Source: a virus (lineage: Duplodnaviria; Caudoviricetes). From it: a stretch of DNA of 31,356 nt. The notes beneath the pieces were generated by a model. That model saw only the letters and a program-made list of their open reading frames with translations, had not been told where the DNA came from and ran no database searches. The translations under genes were made by a program, and so were the position numbers. Below, piece after piece: positions 4,270 to 31,356 of this stretch. The first letter of the stretch is position 1, and each line of letters starts with the position of its first letter. The stretch covers positions 1 to 31,356 of the IMG/VR virus record IMGVR_UViG_3300020045_008438; one strand, 5' to 3'.

Positions 4270-4270
4270 A

Positions 4271-4372: not shown

Positions 4373-4386
4373 GAGGAGCGAGTGAG

Positions 4387-8632: not shown

Positions 8633-8640
8633 GCGAGGCA

Positions 8641-8674: not shown

Positions 8675-8699
8675 GACAAATAAAACAGGAGGAAACAAA

Positions 8700-11431: not shown

Positions 11432-11637
11432 CTGAGACCTACTACATCCCAGCGATCATCAGGACAAAAACGAACGGGTTGCAATGCTCGAAGCGATGCC
11501 AGTTTTGGAATAATGGCTGGTGTATGTTTGATGTGCTACATGCCGAGAACGTCAAAAAGCAGCGTTCGGAAACGTGCAACATGCTCGCCCTGACGCTTGA
11601 CATGTCTCCCGACGAGAGAGGATACGGAAATGACTGA
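11428..11637 (+). CDS. Small Cys-rich protein
   Basis: AAGGAGG RBS, ATGA coupling; CSKRCQF...CMF...RSETC. Confidence 0.6.
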   Translation: MTETYYIPAIIRTKTNGLQCSKRCQFWNNGWCMFDVLHAENVKKQRSETCNMLALTLDMSPDERGYGND

Positions 11638-13410: not shown

Positions 13411-13510
13411 AGGGCGGCGGCGTGAGGGCGGGATACGTGCGGGGGTGTTGTTGTACTTTTGGAGCAGGACGCTCTGAGGTTCGCATTGCGAAATGACACG
13501 CCACCGCCCT
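13411..13510. terminator. Structured convergent intergenic region
   Basis: 14-bp closing stem AGGGCGG(C/T)GGCGTG with one G-U pair on the - strand, two internal hairpins, ATTTT after the stem on the - strand. Confidence 0.5.
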
Positions 13511-14075
13511 AATATGCGGCTCGATTGAGCCAACCGTCAAGATACGGCTTATAGTTCGGGTTCCGCGCGACGCAGGCGCGATAGAAAACCTCCATCTGCG
13601 CACGAAACTCGTGGAGAAAAAACGACGGAGTGATTTCGTTGACCGCCGCCGCCGTTCGCCCGCCGAAAATCCCGTCCACCGCAAGCGGCACGATCCACTC
13701 GTGAGTTTGTTTGTACCACTCCTGAATGAGCGCGTTGATAGTACGCTGGACGATTTTGTGAGCCTGCATCCCGCCGGCGTTGACGGACAACGCGAGTATC
13801 CGCGCCGCCACGCCCTCTTCGGCGATAGCCTCATAGCCGAACCGCTCCCACCAAAACCGACGATAGATGTCGATTGCCTGAGACCGCGACAGTAGCCGCA
13901 CGTCCGCCGCGTCAATCACGCCGTTGCCATCCAGATCGCCCTCGATGGCTCCCAGTTCGGCAAGCACGGGGCGCGTGATTCCATATCGTGTTACACCGCC
14001 CGCGTCAACATCATCAGACTCGACACCCTCAAGCCATAGGACGTGCTCCACGGCATAGTCAAATTTCCGGCTCAT
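13509..14075 (-). CDS. Endolysin, glycoside hydrolase family 108 with peptidoglycan-binding C-terminus
   Basis: EG..SD..D.GG.T.YGIT, Y.RFWW, VNAG, VDG.FG.RT, GW.NR. Confidence 0.92.
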   Translation of the reverse strand: MSRKFDYAVEHVLWLEGVESDDVDAGGVTRYGITRPVLAELGAIEGDLDGNGVIDAADVRLLSRSQAIDIYRRFWWERFGYEAIAEEGVAARILALSVNAGGMQAHKIVQRTINALIQEWYKQTHEWIVPLAVDGIFGGRTAAAVNEITPSFFLHEFRAQMEVFYRACVARNPNYKPYLDGWLNRAAY

Positions 14076-14494
14076 GGCGTGCCCCTTGTTGTGATAATCA
14101 TTTTGATCGCCTCATAGAGCGCAACTACAACGGCGGATACTCCCGTCGCAACTCCCGCGCGGGATTTGAGCGCTGCGACTAACAGCCCAAGCAAATCCAG
14201 TTCGGTTTGCAGTTGTTTCACATTGCCGTTTGTTGTATCCGACCTCACGCCGTTTCGCGACGCAACTGCCGTAAGCCGTTCGTCAAGCCGCGCCCACAAA
14301 ACCGCATGGTCTTTGCACGGGAGAGAGTCGAATTTTGTCAGCATGAGATTCATCATTCTGCTCATCTCTGATAACTCCACTTGTATCGTGGAAACCAACA
14401 CTCGCAATTCAAGATTCTCCTCGCGGCGACGCTCTTCGCGTTCCTCACGGCTTGGGGGATTCATTGTCACAGTCTCCAGTTTATCATCAGACAT
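14072..14494 (-). CDS. Holin-like / lysis-associated membrane protein
   Basis: GAGGTG RBS; coiled coil then C-terminal hydrophobic segment; ATGA-coupled to the endolysin. Confidence 0.5.
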   Translation of the reverse strand: MSDDKLETVTMNPPSREEREERRREENLELRVLVSTIQVELSEMSRMMNLMLTKFDSLPCKDHAVLWARLDERLTAVASRNGVRSDTTNGNVKQLQTELDLLGLLVAALKSRAGVATGVSAVVVALYEAIKMIITTRGTP

Positions 14495-14506
14495 GGTATT
14501 CACCTC

Positions 14507-17500
14507 TCATGGGTGAGATGCTTCGAGCGCACTCAGGCGTGTGTCTATCGCGTCAACCTTGTTTTCAAGTTGGTTTATTCGTTTCTTCAGTTGCCGGTTT
14601 TCCCTCTCTGTCTCTCGCGCGAACTGCCACAGATACGGAATCAGCCGAGTATCAGAAAACAACAGGGTGGTTTCTGAGGTTTTGCGATCTGTGTGTGATG
14701 TCACGGCTTCGGGAATTACAGGCAACACCTCTTGCGCGATAAAGCCCTGAATTGTCTGGGATGTTGCGTCTCCGCGTCGCCAGTACTGGCGCATGGGAAG
14801 CGCACGGATTTTGTCAGCAGCAACAATGGTTGACGTAGTAATGCCCGATTTTGTTCGCGAGTCCGAAACCCTATTCCATGCTAACGCGCCATTGTCCCAA
14901 TAGCCGTAGCCGACAAGCCCGCCGTCGCCATCATAGACGTCGATGAAATTGTTGTCCTTCGTGGTCGTTTGCGCGGCCATGCCGGATTGTATTTTTATCC
15001 CCTGATACGCGAGCGAGCCAGAAGACGCCACGGAGTTTGAGAACGTCGCAACGTAGCCGGTGAACCCGCTCCCGCCCGTGCCGAGCGCCATAACCGGCGT
15101 ATATGCGTAGTTTGCGGACAGAGCAGACACCCCCGCGCTTGGAGTAACCGTAATTCCGCCGTTGCCCGTTACGGTAAGGGCGGCCTCAAGATCGACGGCT
15201 CCGACCAGATGAGACGTGCCTTTAACTTTGAAGTTTGTGCCGATTGTCTGCGAAGACAAAGCATCTATGCGCCCGTCGAATTTTGACGTGCCCTTATTTC
15301 TGAATCCGTTAGTGGACGGACTCGCCGGAGACAATGTCAGAGTAGTCATGTCGCACCTGCCCGCGACTTTCGCAGACCCGTTAATTTTGGCGTTGGACGT
15401 TGCTGTAACAGACGTGAGGTCGGATCGTCCGTCAACCTCCAACGTGCCGGACGTGGCGAGCGACCCGGACGCATTCAGAATGTTAAACATTGGCGAGTCA
15501 TAGGACGAATATACATCGAGCGTGTTGTTAGTGCCAGCGCGAGAATTATAGAGCGTCGATACCTGAGACGCCGAGACGGCATAGGGATAGCATCGGAAAT
15601 TATCCATCTTGCCATAGCCCCAACCCGTTGCTGCACTGAGAGTGCCAAGGAACCAGTTAGACCCGTTGGCCATGCTGCCGACAAAAGCGGCGTTGGTTGT
15701 TTGCAAAGACACTGCTCCGTCAACATACCATGTCAGAGTGGATCCGCTACGAGTCAGAACAAAGTTGTGCCAGAGATAGTCATTTATGTTGGTCAGAATT
15801 TTCGTGAACGTCACGCCCCCCGCATAGGCAGTTATGTTTATTCTGTCCTGCCCAGAAGCATGAATCTGATTTATATCGATCCCGTTATTAGCCGGAGACG
15901 TAACACGTTTGTACATGATGCGCCTGCCTGCCGCCGTGAAGGACGTGTTGTCCGTATTCCACCAAACCGACACGGTGAAATCGTGATTCGCTTTCAGAAA
16001 ATCTTCGCCGAAGTCCGCGCCAAGATTTACATAGTCATTCACGCCGTCGAACAAAAGCCCGTTGCCGATCAGACCCGTGGTTGTGCGCTCTTCGGCTGCG
16101 GTAGTTATGCCTGAAAATGTTTTCGAGGTTGCCGGATCGTTCCAGTGAAACGACGAATCCGTGAGGTTTTTTGATACCGAAGAAATGGTATCCTCGAATT
16201 TATAATATGCGTATTCAGTTTGTTTATGACCCCAGTCAAAAGCGTCCGGGTTGCTGACCGAGATGCCGCCACGGGGAATAATCAATTCACCTGAGTTTGT
16301 CAGCCTCATATTTGTGTTGGTTTTCGTTCCATCGAGGAACGTTGCGCAACCGGAACCGTAACCAGAGACACCAAACCAAAACCCGTTGCTCGACCCCTCT
16401 GCCTTGTATTGCGAGAGGTTTTGAGAGCCCGTCGTCTCCCAATACGCGATATTGTCATCGTCGGTAGATCGCACGTTGAGCACGTTGGATAGCGAAGAGG
16501 ATGTTGCACCAAGACCGAGTTTGCCCGCGAACGAGTTGGAGCCAGTGGCGCGAGAGGTAAATGTTCCCGTTGTGTCCACGTCGCCGCCTGCCGTTATCGT
16601 GGAGGTGGTGAAAAACGCTCCGACGAATTCCGCCGCCGAGACTTTGCCCGTGACATCGAGGTTGCCCGTTACGGTTGTGTCATCATCGATGATCGTTGTT
16701 CCGTTTATGCTGGTCGCCGATCCAGCCTGCCCGATCTCGACCGTTGTGGCGTTGGAGCCGACGGCAAGCGACGTTGCTGGGACGCTGATCGTTGCGGTCT
16801 TGACGCCGCCGGTCAGTGTCGAGAGTCCGGTAACTCCAAGGGTTTCGCCGATTGTCGTTGCAGAGGTTATCGCCACGTCGCCGCCGATGTTGACTTTGTC
16901 GAGAGAGGCGTCCACTTGCAGCATGTTGGTTATATGGTCAGAGGAAATTATCGTGTCATAATCCCCAGCGGAGACGTTTAGCCGCGTGCCCTGATTGACT
17001 TCGAACTGAGATGTAGGTGCGACTTTGCCGACGGCCATATTTCCGCCGATAATTGACATTGCGTTGTCGGCTGTTTCGGTTGTAGCCCCTACGCTGTTAA
17101 GCGAAATTTGCACTGAATTGTCTCCACCAACACGAGCCGCACGCCCTATGCCTATGGAGTAAGCGCCTTTTATTCTTGCCTCCGACCCGATAGCGACCCC
17201 ATACTGGCCGTCCACATCGTTACTATACCCCAGCGCTGTAGCCGCGTTTCCATCCGTGCTATTAAGATAGCCGATAGACACAGATTGAGATCCGGTAGAG
17301 TATGTTGTTCCTATCGCAACACTACTGCCGCCTCCCGCTATTGCCCCATTGCCGAGAGCGAACGACGGATTAGCGTTTGCTCGTGAGTTAAAACCGATAG
17401 AAACGGCATTGTAATTATCCGCGCGTGCGTTATACCCAATAGCCGCCGAATAATCATAGGGAGCCCAGGAAAGTTTTCCAACGGCGAATGAATACGGCCC

Positions 17501-18022
17501 GCTTGTATGGCAATCGTTGCCAAACGCAAATGACCCTAACCCGTTCGCGCTGCTCGATGTCCCCCCCGCGAATGCGTAATTTCCCGCCTCATTATACGCT
17601 CCGATTACCGCCGCGTAATCGTCGGATGTCCGGTTATTGTTCCCTGCGCGAAACGTGTAGTTATGCGTGTCCGTAGTGTGGTTCGACCCGAACAGCATCG
17701 AGCCGGTGTTGTCATCGAGCCGAGCCGACAGATCGCCGCCAATAATGCCCTCGTTGTTATATTGCAGCGTGCCGTGCGCCCCCGCTGCCGTTGCCGTGGA
17801 TAGCACGGTTCCAGCCGCGCCCGCCGCCAACTCTGCCAGCGTGATGCCCGTATTCGAGCCGTCGGAAAAAGTCATGTTGCCGGAGCCGACCCAGATTTCT
17901 CCAACTCCGGTGTTCGGCTTATTACCGTTCAGCATCGAGATTCCGCGCGTCCCTGTATCAATCGCATAGGCTATTCCACAAATGGCCACGATGCAGAGGA
18001 TAATTACAAGTTTTCTTTTCAT
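14507..18022 (-). CDS. Tail fibre/adhesin: signal peptide, YadA-like head repeats, LamG domain, C-terminal S74 intramolecular chaperone
   Basis: AAGGGAG RBS before ATG 18022; S.AIG....A 14-mer repeats (about 17700-17100); LFDGVNDYV, W..F.LTR...YVDG, G.MDNFR.Y LamG (about 16216-15545); SDSRTK..I, GFIAQEV..V.PEAV and coiled coil (about 14866-14507). Confidence 0.88.
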   Translation of the reverse strand: MKRKLVIILCIVAICGIAYAIDTGTRGISMLNGNKPNTGVGEIWVGSGNMTFSDGSNTGITLAELAAGAAGTVLSTATAAGAHGTLQYNNEGIIGGDLSARLDDNTGSMLFGSNHTTDTHNYTFRAGNNNRTSDDYAAVIGAYNEAGNYAFAGGTSSSANGLGSFAFGNDCHTSGPYSFAVGKLSWAPYDYSAAIGYNARADNYNAVSIGFNSRANANPSFALGNGAIAGGGSSVAIGTTYSTGSQSVSIGYLNSTDGNAATALGYSNDVDGQYGVAIGSEARIKGAYSIGIGRAARVGGDNSVQISLNSVGATTETADNAMSIIGGNMAVGKVAPTSQFEVNQGTRLNVSAGDYDTIISSDHITNMLQVDASLDKVNIGGDVAITSATTIGETLGVTGLSTLTGGVKTATISVPATSLAVGSNATTVEIGQAGSATSINGTTIIDDDTTVTGNLDVTGKVSAAEFVGAFFTTSTITAGGDVDTTGTFTSRATGSNSFAGKLGLGATSSSLSNVLNVRSTDDDNIAYWETTGSQNLSQYKAEGSSNGFWFGVSGYGSGCATFLDGTKTNTNMRLTNSGELIIPRGGISVSNPDAFDWGHKQTEYAYYKFEDTISSVSKNLTDSSFHWNDPATSKTFSGITTAAEERTTTGLIGNGLLFDGVNDYVNLGADFGEDFLKANHDFTVSVWWNTDNTSFTAAGRRIMYKRVTSPANNGIDINQIHASGQDRINITAYAGGVTFTKILTNINDYLWHNFVLTRSGSTLTWYVDGAVSLQTTNAAFVGSMANGSNWFLGTLSAATGWGYGKMDNFRCYPYAVSASQVSTLYNSRAGTNNTLDVYSSYDSPMFNILNASGSLATSGTLEVDGRSDLTSVTATSNAKINGSAKVAGRCDMTTLTLSPASPSTNGFRNKGTSKFDGRIDALSSQTIGTNFKVKGTSHLVGAVDLEAALTVTGNGGITVTPSAGVSALSANYAYTPVMALGTGGSGFTGYVATFSNSVASSGSLAYQGIKIQSGMAAQTTTKDNNFIDVYDGDGGLVGYGYWDNGALAWNRVSDSRTKSGITTSTIVAADKIRALPMRQYWRRGDATSQTIQGFIAQEVLPVIPEAVTSHTDRKTSETTLLFSDTRLIPYLWQFARETERENRQLKKRINQLENKVDAIDTRLSALEASHP

Positions 18023-18035
18023 GTTGTTTGCTCCC

Positions 18036-21000
18036 TTACAAAGAGGTTTCCCATATTCTGCCAACGTAAAGTTTCCCGTGGCTCTGCCAGTCTATCGCGC
18101 CGCCTTCGAGCTTCATCAGATACCTGTCGCCGCCATCCGCCGAAAACATGAGGTCGTTCCCGACCAGCCCAATAGGATCGCCCCCCTGCCCGCTGGCGGT
18201 CGGGAAATCCGATGACTCCGAGACGCCCCCGTAACATTCGAGCGACCCATTAGGTTTGAGTTTCGCGGCGATGTATGTCCCGGCACCGTAGGGCGGGAAA
18301 TCATTCGTCGCCCCAAACCATATCCCGCCGCCAATCTCATCATATTCAACCAAAAGCGGCAATGGTGAATCATAACCGGAGTCAGTCATTCTCGTTGGGC
18401 GTGGCAGGTTGCGCTCTTCTACCTGACCGCGCAGGCATAGGGTAGCCGCCGAAGCGATCGAGCCGCCAGACCAATAGGAGGTCATTTTGATTGACATGCA
18501 GAGAGTGCCGCCGATCCAGAAATTGAGGGCGTCTGTAGAGCCTCGAACATATTCGACGTATGTTCCATCGTTGAAATAGACGATCTTGCCTGAGACGCCG
18601 CCGGAGGCGGCTTCCACCGACGTTATTTTCTGCCAGTTCCGCGCCCGACCCGAAGCAATGCCAACCTGCAAGGCGAGCCTCGCTCCGGTTTCGTCGTACT
18701 CCAGCCCCATCACGCGGCCAACGGTTCCGTTCATGCCGCATAGCGGGTCGGTTATGCTGACCGAATCTACGCCGCATTCGAGTTCAAGCCCACGCCCAGC
18801 CGAGACAACATACGATGTGAGCGCAATCGGCCATGCAAACACGTTGCCGAGCCGCTCCGCAAGCGTGGCCGCGAGCGTTGCCGAAGAAAGCCACTTCGCG
18901 AAATACTCCGCGCGGCGCACACCCCAAGGCTGCTCTTGCGAAAACGTTTCATAGAGCGAAACCTTCTTGTTTGTGTTGTCTGAATTTATGTCATAGTAGA
19001 GGTCAATCTCGTTGGCGATCAAGCCGAAATCGGTTGCCTCTTCCGCTGGGATGTCATCGGCGATCCTATCCGCATACGTCAACGCGCGTTGCACGTCCGC
19101 CGCGTCGGATGATAGCCCAGCGAAAAATTTGATCTTTCCGGAGTCTATCGTCCACCTGATGCCCGCGTCCGTGACAGCCTCGGCCAGCAACGCGCCGAGA
19201 GTTATAGGCTGGTAAAGAATGCGCGAGAACACCCACGCCTCGCCCGCGTCCGTCTCCGCCTCATTTACCGCCGACGTGAGAGACGTTGTATCGTAATCAT
19301 CAGTAGTCAGATCGCCAAACCGTGTGGAGTCTGTGAGCAGCGTGGCGATTGTGGTATCGGAGGTCACACCCTGACCGCCGAGCCCAACGCAATCGAGCAG
19401 GAGTGTCGCGTCCTTGTCGCGCATCGGCGTAATGTCGGTCGAGACTTCTTCGACCTCAAAACCAATATCGTAAATGTTCAATTCAAGATTCTGTTCTTTC
19501 TTGGGGAATATCACGCCGACGTTTAGCGCCGCGTTGCCGGTGGAAAACAGATTCCATCCGTGCCGCCGCGCAATGTCGCTGATGTCCATTTTCTGGACGG
19601 CGCGAGAGGAAAGCGTTTTGATCTCGCCGTCAAGTGCGGTTGTCGCGCCAGGCAGGGCAACGGAGCCGCCGATAATGTGTAGTTTTAGCCGCGTTACAAA
19701 CACAAGGGCAGAATTTATTTGCTCCATCAAAGTGCCCATATCAAGACTGCCGTCAGTTTGCGCGACGGCATATGTTTCAACGTAGAAACGCGCAGCAAGT
19801 ATTTCCGACGCTGATAACGTTCTTGTAAATCGCTTAGAAATTGAGCCAAAAAATTCGACCGAAGGGTGTTCTTTGCGAGTAAAATCTGTCCGCCCTGTTA
19901 TGCCATTACCAAAATCATATGCGATAGCAATTCCGTGGCTGTAATACTCCCCAGTGCCGCCGAATTCAAATTGAATTGTTGTGTTCCCGTCAGGAACAGA
20001 AACATCAGCAACGGCCATGTTCAGACGCAGGGCGAGGGTTATCGATCTAACAACGCCCCCAATCACTTCTCCGTCAGACGCTCCATCGCTCCCGATAATA
20101 GAGTTGCCATCTGCCCCAAATGGGAATGCCCCGCCCTCTGATACCAGATAACAATTCGGCCACGATTGCACAATCGTTGTGTGATCTACGCCCCCGCTGC
20201 GTATGGTGTATTGCGTTGATCCTTCTCCTGAGACATAAGCGAGATCGTATGTGTTGTCAACTGTTTGGGCTGCATCTGCATCCTCAAACAACTCGCGCGA
20301 GTCATCCGTTGCCGGATTCCCGCCTTCGGGATAGAGTTTAGAATCGCCAGTTATATCGGTCGGCTCGGTGATGTACTCCGAAAATACTCGCACAACACGC
20401 CCACCAGTGCCCGCGCCCGTTCCGATTCCACCGTCCAAAGAAAAACTCGTGGCGTCAATTTTCGTTATCTGCCATTGAGAGTTTGCGGCATCGTTGCCGG
20501 TGACGCCTGTAATTTCGCAGAAATCCCCAGTCTCTAAATAATGCGCGGCGGTAGTGGTAACAACAATCGGATTCGCGTTCGTCGCCGTGGCAATAGGTAT
20601 CAGGCACGCGGAGTTGTTGCCCGGCACAACAGACCAAAACGGGCGAAACGTGCCGACTGGCCACACCTTGTTGGCCGGAAGCAACGCCGCGTACTTGAGA
20701 TATGCCAAGCATTTCTTTATAGTTCCAGTCCGACCCACCATGCTCGTGTTTGTGCGCACCGCAAGCACGCGCTTGGGGCCGGTAGTTGTCACATAGATAC
20801 CGACATAAGTTCCGCCGCCGGTATAAGCGCCGTTGCCAGTAGTGCCGTCGAGAGTGAACCGCTTATTGTCAACTTTGGTTATAACATGCGTTCCGTTTGC
20901 GTTTGTGCATCCACCAACGCCAGCGATTCGCACTGAGTCGCCGTCTGCCAGGCCGTGATTATCCGATGCCGTAACCAGTATCGGAGTCTGGTTTGTAACC

Positions 21001-22457
21001 GTCTCGATGTTTTTCGCCTCAAGGTCGATCGGCACCATTCGCCCGCCTGACGTGTAAGCCGCACCAAGTCCGTCGGATCCGTCGAGCGAAACGCGCTTAA
21101 CCGTATCGACGGTAACTGTCCACTCGCCATTCGCCGCCGTTGTACCAAGCACTCCAGACACAAGCACTTCGTCGCCTGTGGTAAGTCCATGCGGCGCCGC
21201 CGTTGTGATGTAGATCGGAGCCGCCGATGTTACCGCTGTAATTTTCTGGGGGTCAAGTGCGCCTTGCACTGTAGGATCACCAGCGGCGCCGGCAGGCTCA
21301 TCGTCATCGTATGATTCTGTGATAGGTGTGGAGTCGTCGCGAATGAGGGCAAACGTTGCATCCCGAGACGCGATGTCAGTATCGACAGCGTTTTCGGCGT
21401 CAGCAACAGTGTTCCAACGATTCCGCCGGAACTCCATCGGGGTTTCTGCGTCTTTTAGGTCTATTGTTTTAGCCGTTGCAGTTGCCGAGAGTTTGCCAGG
21501 CATCGAGCCGGATGGAACAGTGATGTATGTCGCAACAGTTCCATTCAGAGTAGGCTCTGTTTTCCACGCCGCGACATAGTCATACAAAGCGCCCTCCGCC
21601 GTGCGCACGTTGGTCACTGTGTCAATCGGGCAATCCGCCGCGACGAAAACCACATCGGCAATTTCCTCGACTACCGTACCCCACGGGTGAGACGTTGCCG
21701 CCGTACCCGCCTCGCCCCGCGTGACCGTGAGGGTGTCGACAGAGCGAGTGAACGAAACTTTTTCGGAGTCAATCCACGCGACGCCAGACGCCGATAGTTG
21801 CGAGCCGTCAGCAACCTCAATCTCTGTCTCTGTGTCCGTTATCGATTCATCGAGCGTCGTTTGCGGAGCCGACGATATTTTGATGGCCTGCAATGCGTCA
21901 ACCGCCCCGATCACCAACGGAATTGTTTTGCCGCATGACTCCGACGGGGCATTCGGAAGGATCGTTTTTTCGACCGCGCGTCCGATGATTTTGTCTGTTA
22001 TCGCGGCAAGCATATCAACCGCTTCAAACGTTACCGATTGCCGCCCGACTACAAAGCGCGAGATGCGATAGCGCCCCAGCGTCAACCAGTCCGCCGACGT
22101 TAGCGAGCCGGACGCGGGCTGAAACACTTTGTAAAACGTTACCGTCAATCCAACAGGCGTTATCGATTCCACGCGCGACTTGATATTCGGAATTTCATTG
22201 GCGTCGATTAGAAGTGAAAACTGCGCGGTTTGCGACGGGATTGTTTCGGCAAGCGAAAGATCGAGCCGTTTCGGAGCATCGGAAAACGAGAGAAGAGTTT
22301 TGGAGAAAGTCTTTGAAGCGTCGGGATTGAAGTCTTTTGCAGGATCGCGGTCGCAGTAATATCGCGTGGCGTCCGCCCACTCAATCGCAACGATGCGAAA
22401 TGCGGAATGTCCGGTTGCGGTTTTCTGCGCGGCTTGACCTGATGTGAGAGTCCGCAT
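18036..22457 (-). CDS. Large tail tip/hub protein with inserted beta-rich modules
   Basis: 1473 aa, two genes after the tape measure; GKTIPLVIG, IANEI.L.Y and S...WGVR tail-hub motifs; three E1-FCCH-like repeats. Confidence 0.8.
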   Translation of the reverse strand: MRTLTSGQAAQKTATGHSAFRIVAIEWADATRYYCDRDPAKDFNPDASKTFSKTLLSFSDAPKRLDLSLAETIPSQTAQFSLLIDANEIPNIKSRVESITPVGLTVTFYKVFQPASGSLTSADWLTLGRYRISRFVVGRQSVTFEAVDMLAAITDKIIGRAVEKTILPNAPSESCGKTIPLVIGAVDALQAIKISSAPQTTLDESITDTETEIEVADGSQLSASGVAWIDSEKVSFTRSVDTLTVTRGEAGTAATSHPWGTVVEEIADVVFVAADCPIDTVTNVRTAEGALYDYVAAWKTEPTLNGTVATYITVPSGSMPGKLSATATAKTIDLKDAETPMEFRRNRWNTVADAENAVDTDIASRDATFALIRDDSTPITESYDDDEPAGAAGDPTVQGALDPQKITAVTSAAPIYITTAAPHGLTTGDEVLVSGVLGTTAANGEWTVTVDTVKRVSLDGSDGLGAAYTSGGRMVPIDLEAKNIETVTNQTPILVTASDNHGLADGDSVRIAGVGGCTNANGTHVITKVDNKRFTLDGTTGNGAYTGGGTYVGIYVTTTGPKRVLAVRTNTSMVGRTGTIKKCLAYLKYAALLPANKVWPVGTFRPFWSVVPGNNSACLIPIATATNANPIVVTTTAAHYLETGDFCEITGVTGNDAANSQWQITKIDATSFSLDGGIGTGAGTGGRVVRVFSEYITEPTDITGDSKLYPEGGNPATDDSRELFEDADAAQTVDNTYDLAYVSGEGSTQYTIRSGGVDHTTIVQSWPNCYLVSEGGAFPFGADGNSIIGSDGASDGEVIGGVVRSITLALRLNMAVADVSVPDGNTTIQFEFGGTGEYYSHGIAIAYDFGNGITGRTDFTRKEHPSVEFFGSISKRFTRTLSASEILAARFYVETYAVAQTDGSLDMGTLMEQINSALVFVTRLKLHIIGGSVALPGATTALDGEIKTLSSRAVQKMDISDIARRHGWNLFSTGNAALNVGVIFPKKEQNLELNIYDIGFEVEEVSTDITPMRDKDATLLLDCVGLGGQGVTSDTTIATLLTDSTRFGDLTTDDYDTTSLTSAVNEAETDAGEAWVFSRILYQPITLGALLAEAVTDAGIRWTIDSGKIKFFAGLSSDAADVQRALTYADRIADDIPAEEATDFGLIANEIDLYYDINSDNTNKKVSLYETFSQEQPWGVRRAEYFAKWLSSATLAATLAERLGNVFAWPIALTSYVVSAGRGLELECGVDSVSITDPLCGMNGTVGRVMGLEYDETGARLALQVGIASGRARNWQKITSVEAASGGVSGKIVYFNDGTYVEYVRGSTDALNFWIGGTLCMSIKMTSYWSGGSIASAATLCLRGQVEERNLPRPTRMTDSGYDSPLPLLVEYDEIGGGIWFGATNDFPPYGAGTYIAAKLKPNGSLECYGGVSESSDFPTASGQGGDPIGLVGNDLMFSADGGDRYLMKLEGGAIDWQSHGKLYVGRIWETSL

Positions 22458-22468
22458 TCGGAAGTCCC

Positions 22469-23122
22469 TTACGTTGCAACATAAGCATCAGTATCTTCGA
22501 TCAAAAATTGAGCCGAGAACGAAATCATCATTTGGTCATAGTCCCTCGCCTCGATTGCTCCAACGAGACACAGTTTATCGACTTTATAGGTTGCGGTTGT
22601 TTTGTCGTACCACCCCATAGCCACGCGGTCAAGTCCGTCGCGCCGGTGCGATTCAAACAAGTGTACGAACGCCGCATAATCAGTAGGGTCACATTGCACA
22701 AAATCCAACAAGAGACTTTTCGCGGAGTCTTTGAATTTGTAAGGAATTCCGTCCGACGCGCCGGACACGAGATCGAGCACGCCGCGATCATACGTTCTTG
22801 TGATTCCGTCCGATAACCCGACGCCGTATTTTATGTATGCGTATTCGGTCGGCTCCCATATCCATAGCCCTGTTATCGGCGTTGTCTGCAACGGGATAGC
22901 AACGCTAATCCCCGCGTCGCTGGCCGCCGTGCAAAGTCCAAGAAACTGAATGTTGTTAAACGCCTCATCCCAACAAAATATAGGATCGTTAACTGCGAGC
23001 ACGCTGGACGTGTTGTCGAACACAAGCGCCGTGTCGCCCGCATCGGGTTTGCTGCCGCCCGCGAGATAATGCGTGTTTTCTATGCCGTATGCGAAAATAG
23101 GGGAGTGGGGAGAAACCGCCAT
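22469..23122 (-). CDS. Distal tail protein-like
   Basis: Position between tape measure and tail tip; 217 aa from ATG 23122. Confidence 0.6.
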   Translation of the reverse strand: MAVSPHSPIFAYGIENTHYLAGGSKPDAGDTALVFDNTSSVLAVNDPIFCWDEAFNNIQFLGLCTAASDAGISVAIPLQTTPITGLWIWEPTEYAYIKYGVGLSDGITRTYDRGVLDLVSGASDGIPYKFKDSAKSLLLDFVQCDPTDYAAFVHLFESHRRDGLDRVAMGWYDKTTATYKVDKLCLVGAIEARDYDQMMISFSAQFLIEDTDAYVAT

Positions 23123-23126
23123 AGTG

Positions 23127-24758
23127 CTACGCCGTCCCCGGCACCGCAAGGCCACCGCGTGTCATTTTGCCAGTTCGCCCAAGCCGCTCTATCGCGCCGA
23201 TTACCGACCGCTGCAACTGTTGCGGCGACAGCCCCGAACCGTTTATCGTTACGTTCACATTTCCGAAGGAGTTCCCAGCGGGAGCGGGCGAAGAGCCACT
23301 TGATCGAACAACAGATAATTCTTCTGACGGCGGCAAGCCAACGCCGCGAAAATTCATGACAGGCGCAGACCAGTTTTCTGTGGCGCGACTTTTCCAAAAT
23401 GCGTCCCATACTCTTTTGAAATCTTCGAAGGCCTTTCGACTTTTATTTATCGCAAGAACTATCGCGTCGAAAAACCAATCTATAGTTTTTCTATATGGTG
23501 GAAGTTTGTCAACAAGACGAGATAGCCAGTTGGTTGTCCAGTTCTTTTTGAAAAACATCTCGAACAAAGGCGTGAATGCCGCTGAAATAAGTATCAGGGG
23601 GGACTCCAGCAAAGCTAGCGCGGTTCCTATTGTGCCGAGAGTGACAACAAACGCGGCAATAACTTTTGACCACGGCTTAAATGATTCTATAAACTTCTGC
23701 CAGTGCCCCTTTACCTGTTTAATTATCTTTCCAAGATTTGTTTCCCATTCTTTTGTGCCGTCTAAGTTCGTTTTTATTGCGCCTTGTGTCAACCATTCGA
23801 GTTTGTCGGAAATCCATATAAGGGCTTGCGATGCAAATTCCTTGAGAGCCGTCCACGCCGGGCCAAGCGCCTCTTTTAACTCTAATCCGATAGCCTCCAA
23901 CGAGTTTTTTATTCTCGTCAAACTCGGCTCGTTTGTGTCGAGCCACTCGCGAAATTCAATAAGTTTTTCCTTAACCCATTTAAGGGCCTCTTTGAAGACT
24001 GGGCCAAAGATTGTTCCTATCGTGTTTGAAATTCCCTGCATCCCATCAAAGACTTCTTGCAGCGCGTCGCCAAGATCATCAGCGCCAGCCGCCGCCTCGT
24101 CCGACATGACAAGCCCAAGGTTACGCGCCTCTTCTGCGAGCGCGTCAAACCCTCCGCTTGCCTGCATGTCGCGCACAAGAGCCAGAATCTGCATACCACC
24201 GCGCCCGAAAATATCCGTTGCCAGCGCGGTTTGCGTCAACTCATCGCCGACGTTTCCAATCGCCGTCGCGATTTGCAGGAAGGCGGATTCCGGCGAAGCG
24301 CCGCTCAGTTTGCCAAGCGACAGCCCTAACCTCTCGATTGTGGCACCCGCCGTTGCGCTGCCGTTAGATGCGTCGGCTATTACGGACGCCATCTGCTTGA
24401 CGGCGGGAGTAATTGCCGAGAACTCTATCCCCGCCTGCTTCATGGCATACTGTAAAACCGAAAGCGTTTCCGCGCTAAAACCCGTTGCTACAGACGCATC
24501 GTGTATGCCGGATCCATAATCGGCAAAGGACTTTGTCGCCGCTGTGACGAACCCCACCAATGCGGTTCCGGCGGCGGCCATGCCAACCGCAGCGGTTTTT
24601 GCAAAGGACGTTACCGCGCTTGATATATTGCTGTACGCTTTATTGATGTACTTTTCGGCTTGTAGAATTTTCTTCTTGAGGGAATCGTCATCCCCTGCCA
24701 GCACCCACAGAGCGGTTCCGATGACGGTAGTTTTGCCAGTGTTGCGCCGCTTAGCCAT
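23127..24758 (-). CDS. Tape measure protein
   Basis: Ala/Gly-rich helical N-half (TG.SAE.LS.L.YA, A..IFGRGG, A..LGLVMS), Trp-periodic C-half; follows the tail chaperones. Confidence 0.9.
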   Translation of the reverse strand: MAKRRNTGKTTVIGTALWVLAGDDDSLKKKILQAEKYINKAYSNISSAVTSFAKTAAVGMAAAGTALVGFVTAATKSFADYGSGIHDASVATGFSAETLSVLQYAMKQAGIEFSAITPAVKQMASVIADASNGSATAGATIERLGLSLGKLSGASPESAFLQIATAIGNVGDELTQTALATDIFGRGGMQILALVRDMQASGGFDALAEEARNLGLVMSDEAAAGADDLGDALQEVFDGMQGISNTIGTIFGPVFKEALKWVKEKLIEFREWLDTNEPSLTRIKNSLEAIGLELKEALGPAWTALKEFASQALIWISDKLEWLTQGAIKTNLDGTKEWETNLGKIIKQVKGHWQKFIESFKPWSKVIAAFVVTLGTIGTALALLESPLILISAAFTPLFEMFFKKNWTTNWLSRLVDKLPPYRKTIDWFFDAIVLAINKSRKAFEDFKRVWDAFWKSRATENWSAPVMNFRGVGLPPSEELSVVRSSGSSPAPAGNSFGNVNVTINGSGLSPQQLQRSVIGAIERLGRTGKMTRGGLAVPGTA

Positions 24759-24987
24759 TGCCGTGCTCCGCCCTGTATCGTGCCGCCTCTTCGCGCGTCA
24801 TGCGCGGGATTGCCTCGCGTTTGTTCTTGCCGCCCTTGCCAGTGCCGCCCCCTGATTTCATAGCATCTGACTGTTTTTGTTTTCGATCCACAAACGCTTT
24901 CAGCATTATTTCAAGAAACTCTTCGCTCCATGTTTCGAGGATAACGCGCGGGTCTATGTGATACTCAGACGCGCACAACTCAAGCAC
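24751..24987 (-). CDS. Tail assembly chaperone, T segment (likely made as a G-T fusion by -1 frameshift)
   Basis: In the -1 frame relative to the upstream ORF, open from the slippery site at 25068 to 24751; directly precedes the tape measure. Confidence 0.65.
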   Translation of the reverse strand: MLELCASEYHIDPRVILETWSEEFLEIMLKAFVDRKQKQSDAMKSGGGTGKGGKNKREAIPRMTREEAARYRAEHGNG

Positions 24988-25001
24988 TCCAACGAACGCG
25001 C

Positions 25002-25466
25002 CTATTCCGTCGCGATCTTGCTTTGCGCGAACTGGAGCATCCGCGACCCGATCTTGAGAAACAAAGGGAATGTGATTGACAGCACCTCCAAAGCCGCCTC
25101 GATAATCTCATCGTCGGAGAACTCGTTTGATTCGTCGCGCAACTCCGGCGCGTAAGCCCACAGCAACTCGACAAGAGAATGCAAGCCGCGACCCAAAATA
25201 AACGGGGCGGTTTTTTTCAGGAACTCGACCGGATCGAGAGCAGAAGCCAATTCCGCAAGCGGTTCGTCAGATTCGCTGTCCCGCGCGCGTTGCACCATCG
25301 CGCGAATGTCCGAATCATAATTGTCGATGAGTTCCGCGAGCAGATCGCAAACGCGTTCGCGGAACTCGTCCATTGCCAGAATGCTCTTGACCCGCAAACG
25401 CCTTTTCTCTCCGGCAAGCGTGACCTCAAAATACTGGAGTACCTTCTGTTTTTCGGATCGCATCAA
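25002..25466 (-). CDS. Tail assembly chaperone (gpG-like)
   Basis: Acidic helical 154-aa ORF between major tail protein and tape measure. Confidence 0.75.
   Translation of the reverse strand: MMRSEKQKVLQYFEVTLAGEKRRLRVKSILAMDEFRERVCDLLAELIDNYDSDIRAMVQRARDSESDEPLAELASALDPVEFLKKTAPFILGRGLHSLVELLWAYAPELRDESNEFSDDEIIEAALEVLSITFPLFLKIGSRMLQFAQSKIATE
25062..25068 (-). other. Candidate -1 programmed frameshift heptamer C CCT TTG
   Basis: X XXY YYZ pattern in the correct phase near the chaperone 3' end; the -1 frame has no stop until 24751. Confidence 0.55.
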
Positions 25467-25475
25467 AAAGCCTTT

Positions 25476-26291
25476 CTACGCGGACGGCATGAGCCGCGCG
25501 ATTTCATCCCACTGCGTATTCGCCGTCGAATACTGTAGCACGATCCAGTCACTCAGTTTTGTCATAATCCAGTCGGCGCTTGGGTTTAGATGCAACTCGC
25601 CGGGTCCAGCCGCCTGATCGTTTAGGGTTATTGCAGCGGCAACCGCGTTTATTTGCAGCGTCAGCGTTTCGCCGTTTGTCAGGCTGGATCCGGTGATTGT
25701 GTCAAGCACGTCCGCAGCGGCGCCTTCGCCGATAACTTTATGGTAGTTACCCGTGCGCGTCAACACTCCGCTGGAAATCGTTGCAGTCACGTTGCCCGCA
25801 CCAAACGTGCTATAGACGCCGGACGCCGCGCCTTCGACGTTGAATTTCATAGTGAGCGGAGCGAGTTCGCGTCCAGAAAACGACTGCTTGGGCATTCCGT
25901 CAGTAGAGACGTACAACCAGTCGCGACGATATGCAGTGCCCGCAAGGTTTTCGCCGACAATCGCAAGCGAGATTTGCGACATCAATTTCGGTGTGGAGTC
26001 CATTGTTACGACCTGCCCGTTAGGCGTGACCCCGAATGCAATGCCCAGCAACGTCGCGTTGGTTTGCAGCGACGGAATTGTGATCGTGCCCTCGCGATGG
26101 GTGAGATAGGATCGCGTGCGATAATCAACGCCGTTGACCAAAATCGCCTTCGGTTCGGGGCCGTCCTCGACCTCGACAGCGTCCTCCTGCCGGATAAATC
26201 CGACAATGTTCGTTGCTGGCGTCCCAGCCGTCCCAACATAGACGGCCAGATCGCCAACCAATACCTCTGTGACGTCCTGTGTATAAGCCAT
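25476..26291 (-). CDS. Major tail (tube) protein with C-terminal accessory domain
   Basis: GGAGGTG RBS before ATG 26291; V.VG...VYVG start; position after the tail terminator; extra C-terminal domain of about 100 aa. Confidence 0.8.
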   Translation of the reverse strand: MAYTQDVTEVLVGDLAVYVGTAGTPATNIVGFIRQEDAVEVEDGPEPKAILVNGVDYRTRSYLTHREGTITIPSLQTNATLLGIAFGVTPNGQVVTMDSTPKLMSQISLAIVGENLAGTAYRRDWLYVSTDGMPKQSFSGRELAPLTMKFNVEGAASGVYSTFGAGNVTATISSGVLTRTGNYHKVIGEGAAADVLDTITGSSLTNGETLTLQINAVAAAITLNDQAAGPGELHLNPSADWIMTKLSDWIVLQYSTANTQWDEIARLMPSA

Positions 26292-26293
26292 CT

Positions 26294-26704
26294 TTACACC
26301 TCCATTAGCGCGTGATATGTTCCCTGCACGGCAAAGAGGCCGTCTATGGGATCGATGTATAACTCCTCGCCTCCCGATTGATCTACCATGCACATTCGGG
26401 AGTCGCTTACCGCCAATGATTTTGTGCCCGCTATCGCGTCATGCACCGTGCCCCAGAGCGATCGCGCCGCGTCTTGATCCGCCGCCCAGCACCGAACGAG
26501 CACATAACGATCTTGCAGGTTTGGGGCGTTGGAGTCAGACGTTGACGCCGGGCCGACGGAGCCGCCGGCAAGCACGTCAAAACTGATAGCCGGAAATGTC
26601 GGCGTCTCTGGCAGTGGGTGTTCGTAAATGCGCGTTGAAACCACCGCCGTTATTGTGGATTTGCCAAGAAGAAAGTTCCGCCAGTATTTTACAAACGATT
26701 TCAC
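26294..26704 (-). CDS. Tail terminator/completion protein (DUF3168/SPP1 gp17-like)
   Basis: V.TRIY...LP....FPAI, V.CWA.....A..L...V..A pattern. Confidence 0.8.
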   Translation of the reverse strand: MKSFVKYWRNFLLGKSTITAVVSTRIYEHPLPETPTFPAISFDVLAGGSVGPASTSDSNAPNLQDRYVLVRCWAADQDAARSLWGTVHDAIAGTKSLAVSDSRMCMVDQSGGEELYIDPIDGLFAVQGTYHALMEV

Positions 26705-27165
26705 GGCTTTATATTCTCCCGCTTGCCAGGCATGTTTTGCACAAACAGATCGACTATTTGATCGCTGCTATCCTCGACGCCGCTGTAAATAAAACCGCCC
26801 TTGGGGTCTCCGCCTATCGGCTTGACGAATCCGGTTCCGGTGCCGCGCTTTACGATTTTGCGCGAAAACTTTCTGCCATGTTTGTCAGTCGCATTGACCA
26901 TCGTTCGTTTGCCGCGCGTCTTATGCCCAAAGGATTCTTGGAAAGCCGGGAATGCCATCTCCACCGCCCACCCCTCAGCCTCGCGTTTCCCGGCTGTAAT
27001 ACCGCTCGCCGTCTGCATGGTCTTGTTGTGGGGCGCAAGCCGGGCTCTGATGTTGCTGGCCATTATCTGAGCGCCTTGGCGCAATGTATCGTCCGTCGCC
27101 GTTTTTACCATGCGCAGAAACGATGCTCCGTTGGATGCGTGATGTATTGCGACGCTTGCTTTCAT
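26701..27165 (-). CDS. HK97 gp10-like neck/tail completion protein
   Basis: Basic 154-aa protein between head closure and tail terminator; FQE.FGH and terminal F...V motifs. Confidence 0.65.
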   Translation of the reverse strand: MKASVAIHHASNGASFLRMVKTATDDTLRQGAQIMASNIRARLAPHNKTMQTASGITAGKREAEGWAVEMAFPAFQESFGHKTRGKRTMVNATDKHGRKFSRKIVKRGTGTGFVKPIGGDPKGGFIYSGVEDSSDQIVDLFVQNMPGKRENIKP

Positions 27166-27497
27166 TCTGCGATGGTCACCGTTGCCGCCTTGAATTTTAC
27201 CGCCCCATTTGCCGTAGGCGTATCGACGCCATTAACGACATAGGTTTTACTGTTCAGTAATACTCGATGTTGATCCGTGATCGTTGTCTCAGGCAGAAAG
27301 AAAATCTTCAGCGTTCGCACGGATATAAGACGGTCGTTGTAATACTCCGCCGCACCGCTGCTTCCACTCAGTTTGCACTTCACATTGTCCGTGAGCGTTG
27401 CCCAATTCGCCGGGGCACTGTGTCCGCTATCGCCCGCAACCGCAGCCGAGTTGTACTGGATCGTGCAAACATCGGTCAATAGAGAATCAATGCTCAT
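27162..27497 (-). CDS. Head closure / head-tail adaptor (SPP1 gp16-like)
   Basis: L...CTIQ, W.T....V.C.L, I....RV......Y.V..V pattern. Confidence 0.8.
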   Translation of the reverse strand: MSIDSLLTDVCTIQYNSAAVAGDSGHSAPANWATLTDNVKCKLSGSSGAAEYYNDRLISVRTLKIFFLPETTITDQHRVLLNSKTYVVNGVDTPTANGAVKFKAATVTIAE

Positions 27498-27499
27498 TT

Positions 27500-28321
27500 T
27501 CAAAACATCCTGATGTACTGCGACAACATATTCTTGTCGAGTAGCCGCTCTACGTCGGGCGTGAACCGTGAACGGCGATAATCGCCGATGCCTTCGCTGG
27601 CATATGTCTCGCCAGTCTCACGGAAATAACGCCCGGCAATCTGTTGGCAAGCCGCGCAAACGAGCGATGGATAAACCGCCGTGTAAATAGTTTTTGCGCT
27701 GTGAGTTGCCGCCGTTGTGCCGTTGACGCCACGAACTACCGTAGCCGACGTGGTTGTTACGGACGAGACATACATCTGCTCCGACTCGACCAGTATGGTT
27801 GTTCCGGCCGTAATGCCCGCCGAAACACTAATCGTCAACGTCAAACCGTCTGTTGTGGCAACCGTTCCGGTAACCGCTGTTGCCAGCCACGGACTCGAAC
27901 CAGTACCGTCTCCATATCCGAACGTCCCTGTTATTTTGACGTAACGCACCGTGTTTATGGGAAATGTTTTGCCGCCGAACGGTGTTGCTTGGACATAGGT
28001 TTTCGGCCATCGGTTGTCTGGAGCGAGCCAATAGTCCGTATTCTGCGTCCATGTCTCGCCGTCGTAAGTGCCGTCGGCTTCCGAATCAGTTACGAACCCG
28101 CTTACCGTCAGCACGTCCTTGCTTAGCAACAAAACCCCGCTGTCACTGCCAGTGTCAAAATAATTTGAAGCCGTCTCGACATAGAAGGGTCTATGGCAGA
28201 TCGAGTCAATATAGCGGCTCGCGCGTTCGAGAGATTCCTCGATTTGCGAATCGTATGAAGTCCCGCTTAGATTGAGACGGCTTCGCATTGTGGCAATCGG
28301 CAGATAGAGGTTAAGCGGCAT
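27500..28321 (-). CDS. Head-tail connector (HK97 gp6 / SPP1 gp15-like) with inserted beta module
   Basis: ASR.ID..C.R.F, DY.L.P, V.ITG.FGY, P.LV..AC.QIA, SE.IGDY. Confidence 0.82.
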   Translation of the reverse strand: MPLNLYLPIATMRSRLNLSGTSYDSQIEESLERASRYIDSICHRPFYVETASNYFDTGSDSGVLLLSKDVLTVSGFVTDSEADGTYDGETWTQNTDYWLAPDNRWPKTYVQATPFGGKTFPINTVRYVKITGTFGYGDGTGSSPWLATAVTGTVATTDGLTLTISVSAGITAGTTILVESEQMYVSSVTTTSATVVRGVNGTTAATHSAKTIYTAVYPSLVCAACQQIAGRYFRETGETYASEGIGDYRRSRFTPDVERLLDKNMLSQYIRMF

Positions 28322-28322
28322 T

Positions 28323-28787
28323 TTACGGCCTCGTTAGGAGCCTGATGGTTAGGTTGTTTGTCGGGCCTGCGTTGTCTACGCGAAGCGTCAGTGCACCGTA
28401 TGCGGTGATCGGTATGCTTGTCGCTCCGTCGCCGATCATCGGAACAAACGTTTTCGCTGCCGCAGAAGAGCAGTTATATCCAAGACTCTGGAATACGTCC
28501 ACCCCGTCAACGTCGGTTAGCGTGACATCGTAGAGATTCGTCGGCGCAAGCGCGCTGCTTGTGTTCGGCGCAAGCGTCACGCGCAGGATTTGACCAAAAA
28601 ACTCTTTGGTTGTCGCCAACACATCGCCGTTGTTGTCCGTAGTACAGGCAAGGCTGATTAGCGTATGCCCACTCTGGCTTTGGTTGCGCCGAGTTACCGT
28701 GCCCGTCGAGACCGTATCCGTTGCCGACGCAATACCCATGCACAAACAGAGCAACACCGCGAGGCTAATAACCGTTTGCGTTTTCAT
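28323..28787 (-). CDS. Putative head accessory (spike-base/decoration-like) beta protein with signal peptide
   Basis: AAGGAGG RBS; MKTQ-TVISLAVLLCLCMG-IASA leader; PT.LYDVTL.D.DG.D motif; located in the head module. Confidence 0.6.
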   Translation of the reverse strand: MKTQTVISLAVLLCLCMGIASATDTVSTGTVTRRNQSQSGHTLISLACTTDNNGDVLATTKEFFGQILRVTLAPNTSSALAPTNLYDVTLTDVDGVDVFQSLGYNCSSAAAKTFVPMIGDGATSIPITAYGALTLRVDNAGPTNNLTIRLLTRP

Positions 28788-28798
28788 GGCTTGCCTCC

Positions 28799-29269
28799 TT
28801 ATGGCTTGGCGATGAACATGTACTGCACCGTCGCCGTGGTTGCCGCGGTCGATTTAATCTGAAACCTATTCGCGGCGCGAACAACGTAAAGCGCAACAGC
28901 CGCCGCCGGATCAGGATCGGCAGACGTTATCAGCATGATGTCGTTCGTGTCGGCTCCGGTCAAGGCAACGCTTTTCGTGGCCGAGTTTATTAGCGACGCC
29001 GTGCCGAGCAGCAATTGGGTGAAAGTAGTGCCGCTTGCGCCGATCTTGAGATCACCGGCAAGCGCCACGTCAGAGCCGGACGCGCCTGCGATGTTGCCGC
29101 CGCTCGCCACGGTTTGGGTGCCGCCACTGGCAATCGTGAGCGCGCTACCGACCACCCAAGACGCGCCTCCCTGAGCCATGTAGTTTGAGGTATTGTACTG
29201 CGCCCAGGCAAAGGTCAAGGCTATCACGACCATCAGCGGGGCAAGTACGATTGCGAATTTGATTTTCAT
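28799..29269 (-). CDS. Head-fibre-like protein with signal peptide
   Basis: MKIK-FAIVLAPLMVVIALTF-AWA leader, then QYNTSNYMAQGG..WVVG..L.I..G, resembling the YN.KNY.EQGG...VIGG.L start of siphophage head fibre proteins. Confidence 0.7.
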   Translation of the reverse strand: MKIKFAIVLAPLMVVIALTFAWAQYNTSNYMAQGGASWVVGSALTIASGGTQTVASGGNIAGASGSDVALAGDLKIGASGTTFTQLLLGTASLINSATKSVALTGADTNDIMLITSADPDPAAAVALYVVRAANRFQIKSTAATTATVQYMFIAKP

Positions 29270-29526: not shown

Positions 29527-30708
29527 TTAGAGCATCGTCAGCACGCGGACGGCGCTTGTATCGACCAGATCGCCATCGCTGCGGGCGGTGCCCTTGTAAC
29601 CGATCATGTCATAGTCGGCGTACAATTCGGTCAGCACCTGCAACTCAAACCCCTTGCGCTCGACGATGTAATAACCGCCGACCCATCCGAACAAGATTGC
29701 ATCAAGTCCGGCTGTCGCGGCTGGGGCGTCGGGCGAGATATAGACGGGGCGTCCCAGGATGAGGTCGGGCTGAGCCGCCTGCAAACCAGGCTGCCAGAGA
29801 TATTGACCCTGACCGTCTTTGAGTTTGCGAACCAGTTTAAGCGTCGCATCCTTCATTATCCAAGAGGCATCGCGGCGATAGTAATTGCCAACCGAATGGT
29901 AAAGATCGATTACCTCGTCGGCTGTTATCGCGGTTGCGGACGCGGCAGTCACGCCAGTCGTGGCGGCGGTGAATATGCCGTTGTGCTGGCTAGAACCGGT
30001 GCCGGAAACACAGAGTGCCTCTTCCTTGACGGCAATCGAACGCGCGAGTTTGCGAAGCAGATACCCCGTGAAGTCCATCGTCGAGTCGTTCGCGAGTTCC
30101 GCCGACTCCTTGATGATGCGCCCTATTTTGTAGGGACTAAACTGCACGCGGGTGATCGTTTCCTTGGCAACCGCAATCTGCGAGTTTTCGCCATAGACGC
30201 TGGCCGCGCCTTCGACAGACTCAGCCGCAACGTTCATCGTGCCGCTGTTCGAGGTAATGATGGTTGCGAGTTGACGCATGATTGACACGTCGTGGCGCAA
30301 CTCAACAATCGTGTTGTACCATTCGTCGGGAACAGCGTAGCCGCCATCGCCTGCCGTGCCGATGGTTTGCGGGTCGGTTGTCGCACGCAACTCAGCCGCG
30401 GCGATTCCGGTTCGAAGGTAATCCTCAAACGCGCGGACGTAAGGCGCTTTCTGAGTAGTCTTGCTTGCGGACGCGCCAGCACGCAAGTCGCCGCTGGTGT
30501 CGCTGGCAAGCACCCTCGCTTCGCGTTCGCGTTCCTCGACCTTCTTTGCGCGTTCGATGCTTTCGGTCAACTGCTCGAACCGCTGCTCCATCTTGCCATA
30601 CTTCTCGGCATCCTCGGCGCTGAGAGGTTTTTCGCCGTAGGACTCAAGCAGATCGCGCTGCTCTTTCAGGATCGACGCGCGGGCGTCGTACATCTCTTGC
30701 ATTCTCAT
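29527..30708 (-). CDS. Major capsid protein, HK97 family
   Basis: AAGGAG RBS; coiled-coil delta domain, GGYAVP, S.ELANDS, G.G..Q..GI, KLKDGQGQYLWQP, ILGRPV, R.DG.L. Confidence 0.97.
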   Translation of the reverse strand: MRMQEMYDARASILKEQRDLLESYGEKPLSAEDAEKYGKMEQRFEQLTESIERAKKVEEREREARVLASDTSGDLRAGASASKTTQKAPYVRAFEDYLRTGIAAAELRATTDPQTIGTAGDGGYAVPDEWYNTIVELRHDVSIMRQLATIITSNSGTMNVAAESVEGAASVYGENSQIAVAKETITRVQFSPYKIGRIIKESAELANDSTMDFTGYLLRKLARSIAVKEEALCVSGTGSSQHNGIFTAATTGVTAASATAITADEVIDLYHSVGNYYRRDASWIMKDATLKLVRKLKDGQGQYLWQPGLQAAQPDLILGRPVYISPDAPAATAGLDAILFGWVGGYYIVERKGFELQVLTELYADYDMIGYKGTARSDGDLVDTSAVRVLTML

Positions 30709-31355: not shown

Positions 31356-31356
31356 T

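Follow-up and report, generated by a model that had tools for sequence, protein, structure and literature searches.

We analysed positions 1 to 31,356 of the IMG/VR virus record IMGVR_UViG_3300020045_008438 (hereafter the window). These 31,356 bases come from a long-tailed phage of HK97 type and carry its late operon on the minus strand (Table 1). Three of its late genes begin with predicted Sec signal peptides (leaders): those for a head-fibre-type protein (SP1), for the protein encoded next to it (SP2), and for a long fibre. SP1 and SP2 are encoded close to the major capsid protein, the presumed docking surface for appendages. The nearest annotated capsid proteins share only 35–38% identity with that of the window, too little to assign a host; GH108-type endolysins are associated with two-membrane hosts, and the endolysin type points to a host that probably has two membranes. 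No spanin-like gene was recognised near the endolysin. Among the neck and tail genes, adaptor, closure, terminator and tape measure have PHROG matches, and the others are named by position. Portal and terminase lie outside the window; the leader states reported here are those of the late genes within it.

Table 1 Genes and features of the window (aa, amino acids; a slash marks a predicted cleavage site)
Feature	Coordinates	Strand	Remarks
Prohead protease	30705..31356	-	PF04586, E 4e-46; cut by the window end, start outside
HK97-type major capsid protein	29527..30708	-	PF05065, E 5e-67; phrog_10; leaderless
DUF7302 gene, 63 aa	29269..29460	-	Leaderless; translationally coupled to SP1
SP1, head-fibre-type, 156 aa	28799..29269	-	Leader residues 1-23 (29201-29269)
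SP2, small jelly-roll beta-sandwich (model), 154 aa	28323..28787	-	Leader residues 1-22 (28722-28787)
Leaderless neck and tail genes	18036..28321	-	Adaptor, closure, gp10-like, terminator, probable tube, chaperones, tape measure, Dit-position gene, tip
Head-tail adaptor, 273 aa	27500-28321	-	Insertion at residues 142-223 resembles tail-fibre segments
Probable tube protein, 271 aa	25476-26291	-	Seems to have a C-terminal extension
Tape measure	23127-24758	-	PHROG match
Tail-tip protein, 1473 aa	18036-22457	-	Repeated E1_FCCH / phrog_584 segments; 14 cysteines; leaderless
Long fibre, 1171 aa	14507..18022	-	Leader residues 1-20 (17963-18022)
Lysis genes	13509..14503	-	Holin-position gene and GH108 + PG_binding_3 endolysin; both leaderless
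Holin-position gene	14072-14503	-	No family match
C92 papain-like amidase	11597-12181	+	
Gene without family match	10003-11004	+	
DUF7666 protein	8987-9661	+	Long Ala-Ala-Trp/Glu/Arg repeats; repetitive frames open on both strands
Lipoprotein, 96 aa	8700-8990	+	Lipoprotein signal LSG/C; strong ribosome-binding site; non-structural arm; no Pfam match; possible superinfection-exclusion factor
D12 adenine methyltransferase	7664-8632	+	
phrog_3657 plus DUF2800 nuclease	5303-7667	+	
DnaD-like replication protein	1073-2272	+	PCPK and QE repeats

A sequence-only reading of this DNA had assigned to the three genes tripartite leaders (n-, h- and c-regions) with an A-X-A cut, at starts backed by a ribosome-binding site (RBS) or by translational coupling, and had described the core capsid, neck, tube, tape measure and tip proteins as leaderless; all of this held. 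The three open reading frames (ORFs) are present on the minus strand, and each leader has a basic n-region, an uncharged hydrophobic h-region and small residues at -3 and -1, with predicted sites AWA/QY (SP1), ASA/TD (SP2) and AYA/ID (long fibre). Each Met1 is preceded by a strong RBS: AGGAGG plus a TAATG overlap with the stop of the upstream gene for SP1, AGGAGG 7 nt upstream for SP2, and GGGAG 8 nt upstream for the long fibre. No internal in-frame start in the first 45 codons of the three genes has such an RBS. The ORF list gives the fibre a longer TTG start at 18064; its relative P0007 starts at the same Met as 18022.

Leaders were called with a purpose-written n/h/c heuristic, not a trained predictor. 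It picked exactly SP1, SP2 and the long fibre from 17 late genes, leaving the other 14 unflagged (the protease start lies outside the window). In a control set of 889 distinct genes that surround leaderless head-fibre loci, it picked only 3. The best 11-residue hydropathy was 3.0–3.7 in the three leader genes and did not exceed 2.0 in the remaining 14. The three leaders, read from sequence, contain neither a lipobox nor a twin-arginine motif, which rules out a lipoprotein or Tat signal, and the heuristic controls, the RBSs and the family survey described below rule out chance or a wrong start as their cause. One close relative, a 27,387-base contig, retains all three leaders, with the starts in the same place (P0004, P0002 and P0007); between it and the window, the SP2 leader has diverged more than the 40 residues that follow it (8/22 versus 23/40 conserved).

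SP1 belongs to a family of head-fibre-type proteins with an N-terminal NYxxQGG motif. Its mature N-terminus, QYNTSNYMAQGG..W, bears this motif (NYxxQGGxxWxVG; E 1.9e-12 with a motif hidden Markov model (HMM) whose seeds include the window), residues 24-88 match positions 2-63 of the phrog_12102 profile (E 4e-5), and the gene lies within a few genes after the HK97-type capsid gene, as expected for the family. The mature start aligns with the first residues of the leaderless gp07 of Paenibacillus phage Wanderer (YP_010080228.1). SP1 shares with Wanderer gp07 and other leaderless phrog_12102 proteins the N-terminal motif and the place just after the capsid gene, but differs from them in having a leader and another C-terminal domain. 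Some Bacillota members carry PF11133 (Phage_head_fibr); its C-terminal segment had no match in SP1 and is present in L020 and L039.

A survey of viral contigs, genomes and metagenomes yielded at least 300 loci with the motif. Among the matches listed, there were 152 distinct N-termini: 116 leaderless, 35 with a leader (window included), and one ambiguous. A scan selecting Ala-Gln before the motif contributed 21 of the 35, which inflates the 35:116 ratio. Again among the matches listed, the 116 leaderless members start 5–10 residues before NY, and the 35 leader-bearing members are predicted to be cut 3–7 residues before it, with motif and spacing retained in every one. A scan for AQNxxNYxxQGG gave 23 distinct matches, of which three were due to chance and 20 were true members, all with a complete leader ending at that Ala. 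Gln also stands at +1 in 11 of the 14 leader-bearing members not picked by Ala-Gln. Judged by these alignments, the leaders of the SP1 family are predicted to be cut at the ancestral N-terminus.

This pattern bears on the possibility that cleavage is slow or does not occur, so that the leaders would act as anchors and hold the appendages at the periplasmic face of the inner membrane. Particles assembled or released at a membrane site would acquire them there, perhaps together with membrane. The strongly hydrophobic h-regions would suit such anchors, but an anchor would need neither the Ala-x-Ala whose distance to the motif is fixed in 35/35 members nor the Gln at +1 in 32/35 (21 of them selected for it). 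We therefore consider anchoring improbable.

The sequence-only reading had proposed checking whether the leader is an add-on in a clade. It does look like an add-on to mostly leaderless families, but it recurs across HK97-type phages and is not confined to one clade. On a FastTree phylogeny of 70 capsid proteins (24 leader-bearing and 46 leaderless, retained from 122 after thinning of near-copies), the leader state switches no fewer than 8 times (13 on the best tree), with gain and loss indistinguishable there; this scatter rules out a peculiarity of one clade. L130, the sister of the window on this tree, shares its gene order and carries two leader genes; the gene after the L130 head fibre is leader-bearing, and membership of the SP2 family was not detectable for it. 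None of 23 Bacillota records has a leader. The named genomes with a leader are two alphaproteobacterial prophages and one short Kiritimatiellia contig, and leaderless forms also occur in Alphaproteobacteria, Planctomycetota and Chloroflexota.

Several genes recur beside members of this family. A leaderless 140–157-aa gene, a candidate vertex base protein, adjoins the head fibre in 26/35 leader-bearing and 42/116 leaderless cases (L002, L004, L005, L006, L010, L150, L279 and others) and is absent from that place in the window. A conserved 226–263-aa gene without a Pfam match, possibly a modifying enzyme, directly precedes leader-bearing head fibres in the alphaproteobacterial-type phages L002 (9110-9883), L086, L011, L410 and L416. 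In L086, an alphaproteobacterial prophage, about four more leader-bearing genes are clustered between neck genes (2386-6947, minus strand). The leader-bearing head fibre of L248 has 812 aa, and the 666-aa gene after it looks portal-like and stands out of the usual order (6346-8781, minus strand); like the window, L248 has a 273-aa adaptor.

Leader state travels with cysteine content. At least two cysteines occur in the mature part of 21/35 leader-bearing but only 2/114 leaderless head-fibre members, and in 1/42 of the leaderless members that have the same 140–157-aa neighbour. The cysteine count is even in 21 of the 35 leader-bearing members, odd in 3 and zero in 11, a pattern spread over 7 of 13 C-terminal clusters. 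As a second, independent signature, a Wzy_C-like gene of the O-antigen-ligase family lies within 4.5 kb downstream in 6/25 leader-bearing versus 0/100 leaderless loci, counting only loci with at least 500 bases of downstream sequence. The loci are related, and these two-by-two counts are not independent trials. The Wzy_C Pfam cut-off was passed in L005, in L150 and twice in L415, whereas L279 fell below it and the truncated genes of L423 and L431 matched a purpose-built HMM only. The Wzy_C Pfam family includes periplasmic protein O-oligosaccharyltransferases. In L415, two tandem O-antigen-ligase-family genes and another leader-bearing gene directly follow the head fibre (4597-8571, minus strand); L418 has a sulfotransferase gene in its head-tail module, three genes past a leader-bearing head fibre (7080-7931, minus strand). 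Glycosylation of virions by phage glycosyltransferases is mentioned for mycobacteriophages (PMC11256854).

The cysteines and internal starts also bear on whether each gene has two products, a cytoplasmic form (from an internal start or by escape from export) that decorates the virion and an exported form that is a by-product or serves another function. In-frame Met codons exist at SP1 31 and fibre 30, and most relatives function with leaderless forms. However, neither codon is preceded by an RBS, and paired cysteines suit an oxidising compartment. SP1 Met31 falls within the conserved motif, and the residue itself varies between leader-bearing proteins. Two products per gene thus seem very improbable to us.

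For SP2, an AlphaFold model (pLDDT 80.6 with 59 further rows in the alignment; 35 from two sequences alone) shows a beta-sandwich of jelly-roll type. It matched the capsid cement proteins of BPP-1 (3j4u; Z 7.7, root-mean-square deviation (rmsd) 3.0, 101 residues aligned) and KHP40 (7dou; Z 7.3, rmsd 3.6, 103 aligned), but these matches are unspecific: the cement proteins rank below GOLD and carbohydrate-binding domains, with Z values no better than those of many unrelated beta-sandwiches. A family-only HMM of a ~120-aa leaderless family gave SP2 as the best of 403 window ORFs (11 bits, E 0.008), and residues 27-154 resemble 127- and 131-aa viral clusters (Atlas TM 0.74–0.75). SP2 is likely a distant member of this family, which is encoded mostly in head modules; all 65 of its full-length genes were leaderless in an unbiased scan, and the copy in cultured Microcystis phages is leaderless as judged by length. 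We found no close SP2 relatives in viral contigs or annotated phages. SP2 has a cysteine pair, C48 and C106, that is common to P0002 and may form a disulfide; none of 58 leaderless rows has a cysteine in these two columns. In L411, a leader-bearing member of the SP2 family is predicted to be cut at the leaderless start and adjoins a leader-bearing head fibre.

The long fibre comprises its leader, repeats matching YadA-head proteins, a laminin-G-like segment (PF02210, below the cut-off) and a C-terminal S74 chaperone (PF13884, E 6e-7; SDxxxK motif SDSRTK at 1053). P0007 is 50% identical to it and leader-bearing. The label of tail fibre given by the sequence-only reading has gene position and the S74 domain as its sole basis. 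Among phages with a leader-type head fibre, leader-bearing genes in the tail region were found in three of the four whose fibre region was examined (G001, G004/G006 and G005; not G012) versus 1 of 12 leaderless controls (G020). These counts come from visual inspection of noisy gene calls; one further control, the 13th, ended before the region. A 490-aa leaderless gene of G001 and a 494-aa leader-bearing gene of G005 are 58% identical, aligned from residue 3 versus residue 23. Judging from this pair and from the SP2-family protein of L411, leaders appear to have been grafted in other families too.

Leader and S74 domain together recall the S74 subfamily of the MAT fibres of Bdellovibrio bacteriovorus, which have a signal peptide; like the long fibre, these have ~1000 aa and a C-terminal S74 domain with SDxxxK, but they are chromosomal surface adhesins that share a ~130-aa beta-rich domain after the leader (PMC10769870). 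The long fibre differs from them in being encoded in a phage late operon between the tail tip and the lysis genes. In an alternative reading, the leader-bearing proteins would be exported without ever joining a particle: appendage genes would have been repurposed to mask receptors, to act as decoys against competing phages or to serve as adhesins, in the periplasm or at the surface, with the long fibre working like a MAT fibre. This alternative is strongest for the long fibre, and a role as receptor blocker or adhesin applies mainly there: signal peptide plus S74 is the MAT architecture, bacterial records contain similar leader + YadA-head + S74 proteins, and no docking domain was recognised in the fibre. 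The phage also encodes an ordinary lipoprotein. On the other hand, the genes are coupled to late genes and sit where head-decoration and tail-fibre genes canonically lie, no fibre-type gene other than the long fibre occurs between the tip and the lysis genes, the proteins have neither a membrane anchor nor a beta-barrel, and the head-fibre motif common to leaderless forms keeps its spacing in all leader-bearing ones. Proteins gp085, gp086 and gp087 of Cellulophaga phage phi18:3 (NC_021794, Pachyviridae) also speak against it. They have signal-peptide-like N-termini with Gln at +1 and are annotated, in the record, as virion proteins from tandem mass spectrometry (MS/MS), whereas the heuristic flagged none of nine other translated phi18:3 proteins with such annotation. 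However, phi18:3 is an unrelated Bacteroidota phage, and its record is silent on export. Overall, we rate a purely non-virion role as unlikely.

In the head spike of the gene transfer agent RcGTA, the fibre Rcc01080 is held on the base Rcc01079 by its residues 2-10 (PMC7296036), a precedent showing how the position of the cut, at the ancestral N-terminus, could be important. This spike pairs a small jelly-roll with a fibre held by its extreme N-terminus, as SP2 and SP1 may do, but its docking motif, IALGLGLGL, is absent from SP1, and the available part of PMC7296036 describes no export. The leader proteins of the window are also unlike M13 pIII and pVIII in that they have no anchor and belong to a tailed phage with lytic release. 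These filamentous phage coat proteins have leader peptides and use the host membrane-targeting machinery, but they remain membrane-anchored and are assembled by extrusion without lysis.

The sequence-only reading had proposed that the appendages are exported and could dock during or after lysis, or else act as secreted receptor blockers or adhesins. Export is well supported: the leaders are add-ons, and in the head-fibre family their predicted cut falls at the ancestral N-terminus and they co-occur with paired cysteines and ligase-family genes. We regard export of the three proteins as highly probable. Docking onto virions we infer from family, gene position and the MS/MS-annotated phi18:3 proteins; a complex prediction with three copies each of the capsid protein and the mature SP1 N-terminus scored 0.22 against a mark of 0.32. 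In the proposed route, the three appendage genes would be expressed late together with the capsid, and their products would be exported through SecYEG and cleaved by signal peptidase I, which would regenerate a free N-terminus a few residues before the NYxxQGG motif. They would then mature in the periplasm of the probably two-membrane host, where a disulfide could form in SP2, S74 would drive trimer folding of the long fibre, and relatives with a ligase gene could add glycans. Once the inner membrane breaks at lysis, the appendages would mix with heads and tails. We consider this whole course, from Sec export and cleavage through folding outside the cytoplasm to docking on finished particles at lysis, somewhat favoured by the evidence.

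Several observations weigh against this view. For the phage of the window, expression, cleavage, location and virion content are inferred from sequence. Compared with the close relative, the SP1 leader is not less conserved than the next 40 residues (16/23 versus 23/40), and the fibre leader is barely so (11/20 versus 26/40). The name head fibre derives from gene position and from the Pfam match in other members; sequence searches of solved structures found none that matched the NYxxQGG motif, and we found no structure on which a virion location of the phrog_12102 family could rest. Leaderless head fibres also occur in phages of two-membrane hosts (Hyphobacterium, Gemmataceae), and export would thus be optional. 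For SP2, the family link and the fold are weak or unspecific. The long fibre had no tail-docking domain in Pfam and PHROG searches and no leaderless homologue for its residues 21-125 among the fetched loci, and several proteins with similar repeats plus S74 are exported proteins of bacteria. Phi18:3 gp085–gp087 are known by annotation, and homology to the proteins of the window is not established. Finally, SP1 contains no cysteine, no cysteine pair of the long fibre is conserved in P0007, no Wzy_C gene lies within the window, and D-S/T or N-x-S/T-with-acid motifs are not in excess in the proteins of the window, which leaves the benefit of export in this phage unexplained.

In the standard view, tailed phages are fully assembled in the cytoplasm before lysis. 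The protein families discussed here and exported S74 fibres are of already known kinds, and the assembly route may be categorically new. The literature searched, which covered few subscription journals, contained no description of exported tailed-phage appendages. We see roughly even chances that the window exemplifies a widespread second assembly compartment, in which head fibres, decoration proteins and tail fibres would pass through Sec, be cut to their ancestral N-termini, acquire disulfides and, in some lineages, glycans from phage-encoded ligases, and be loaded onto particles at lysis; the route would have been gained and lost repeatedly along with a leader of 20–35 residues. The head-fibre family offers a clean natural experiment for this idea, since the same motif occurs with and without a leader and with matching cysteine and ligase signatures, and phi18:3 is a cultured phage with existing virion proteomics. 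If the idea is correct, the host-recognition parts of phages would gain access to disulfide bonding and periplasmic glycosylation, and discarding signal-peptide proteins as non-structural during annotation would be wrong.

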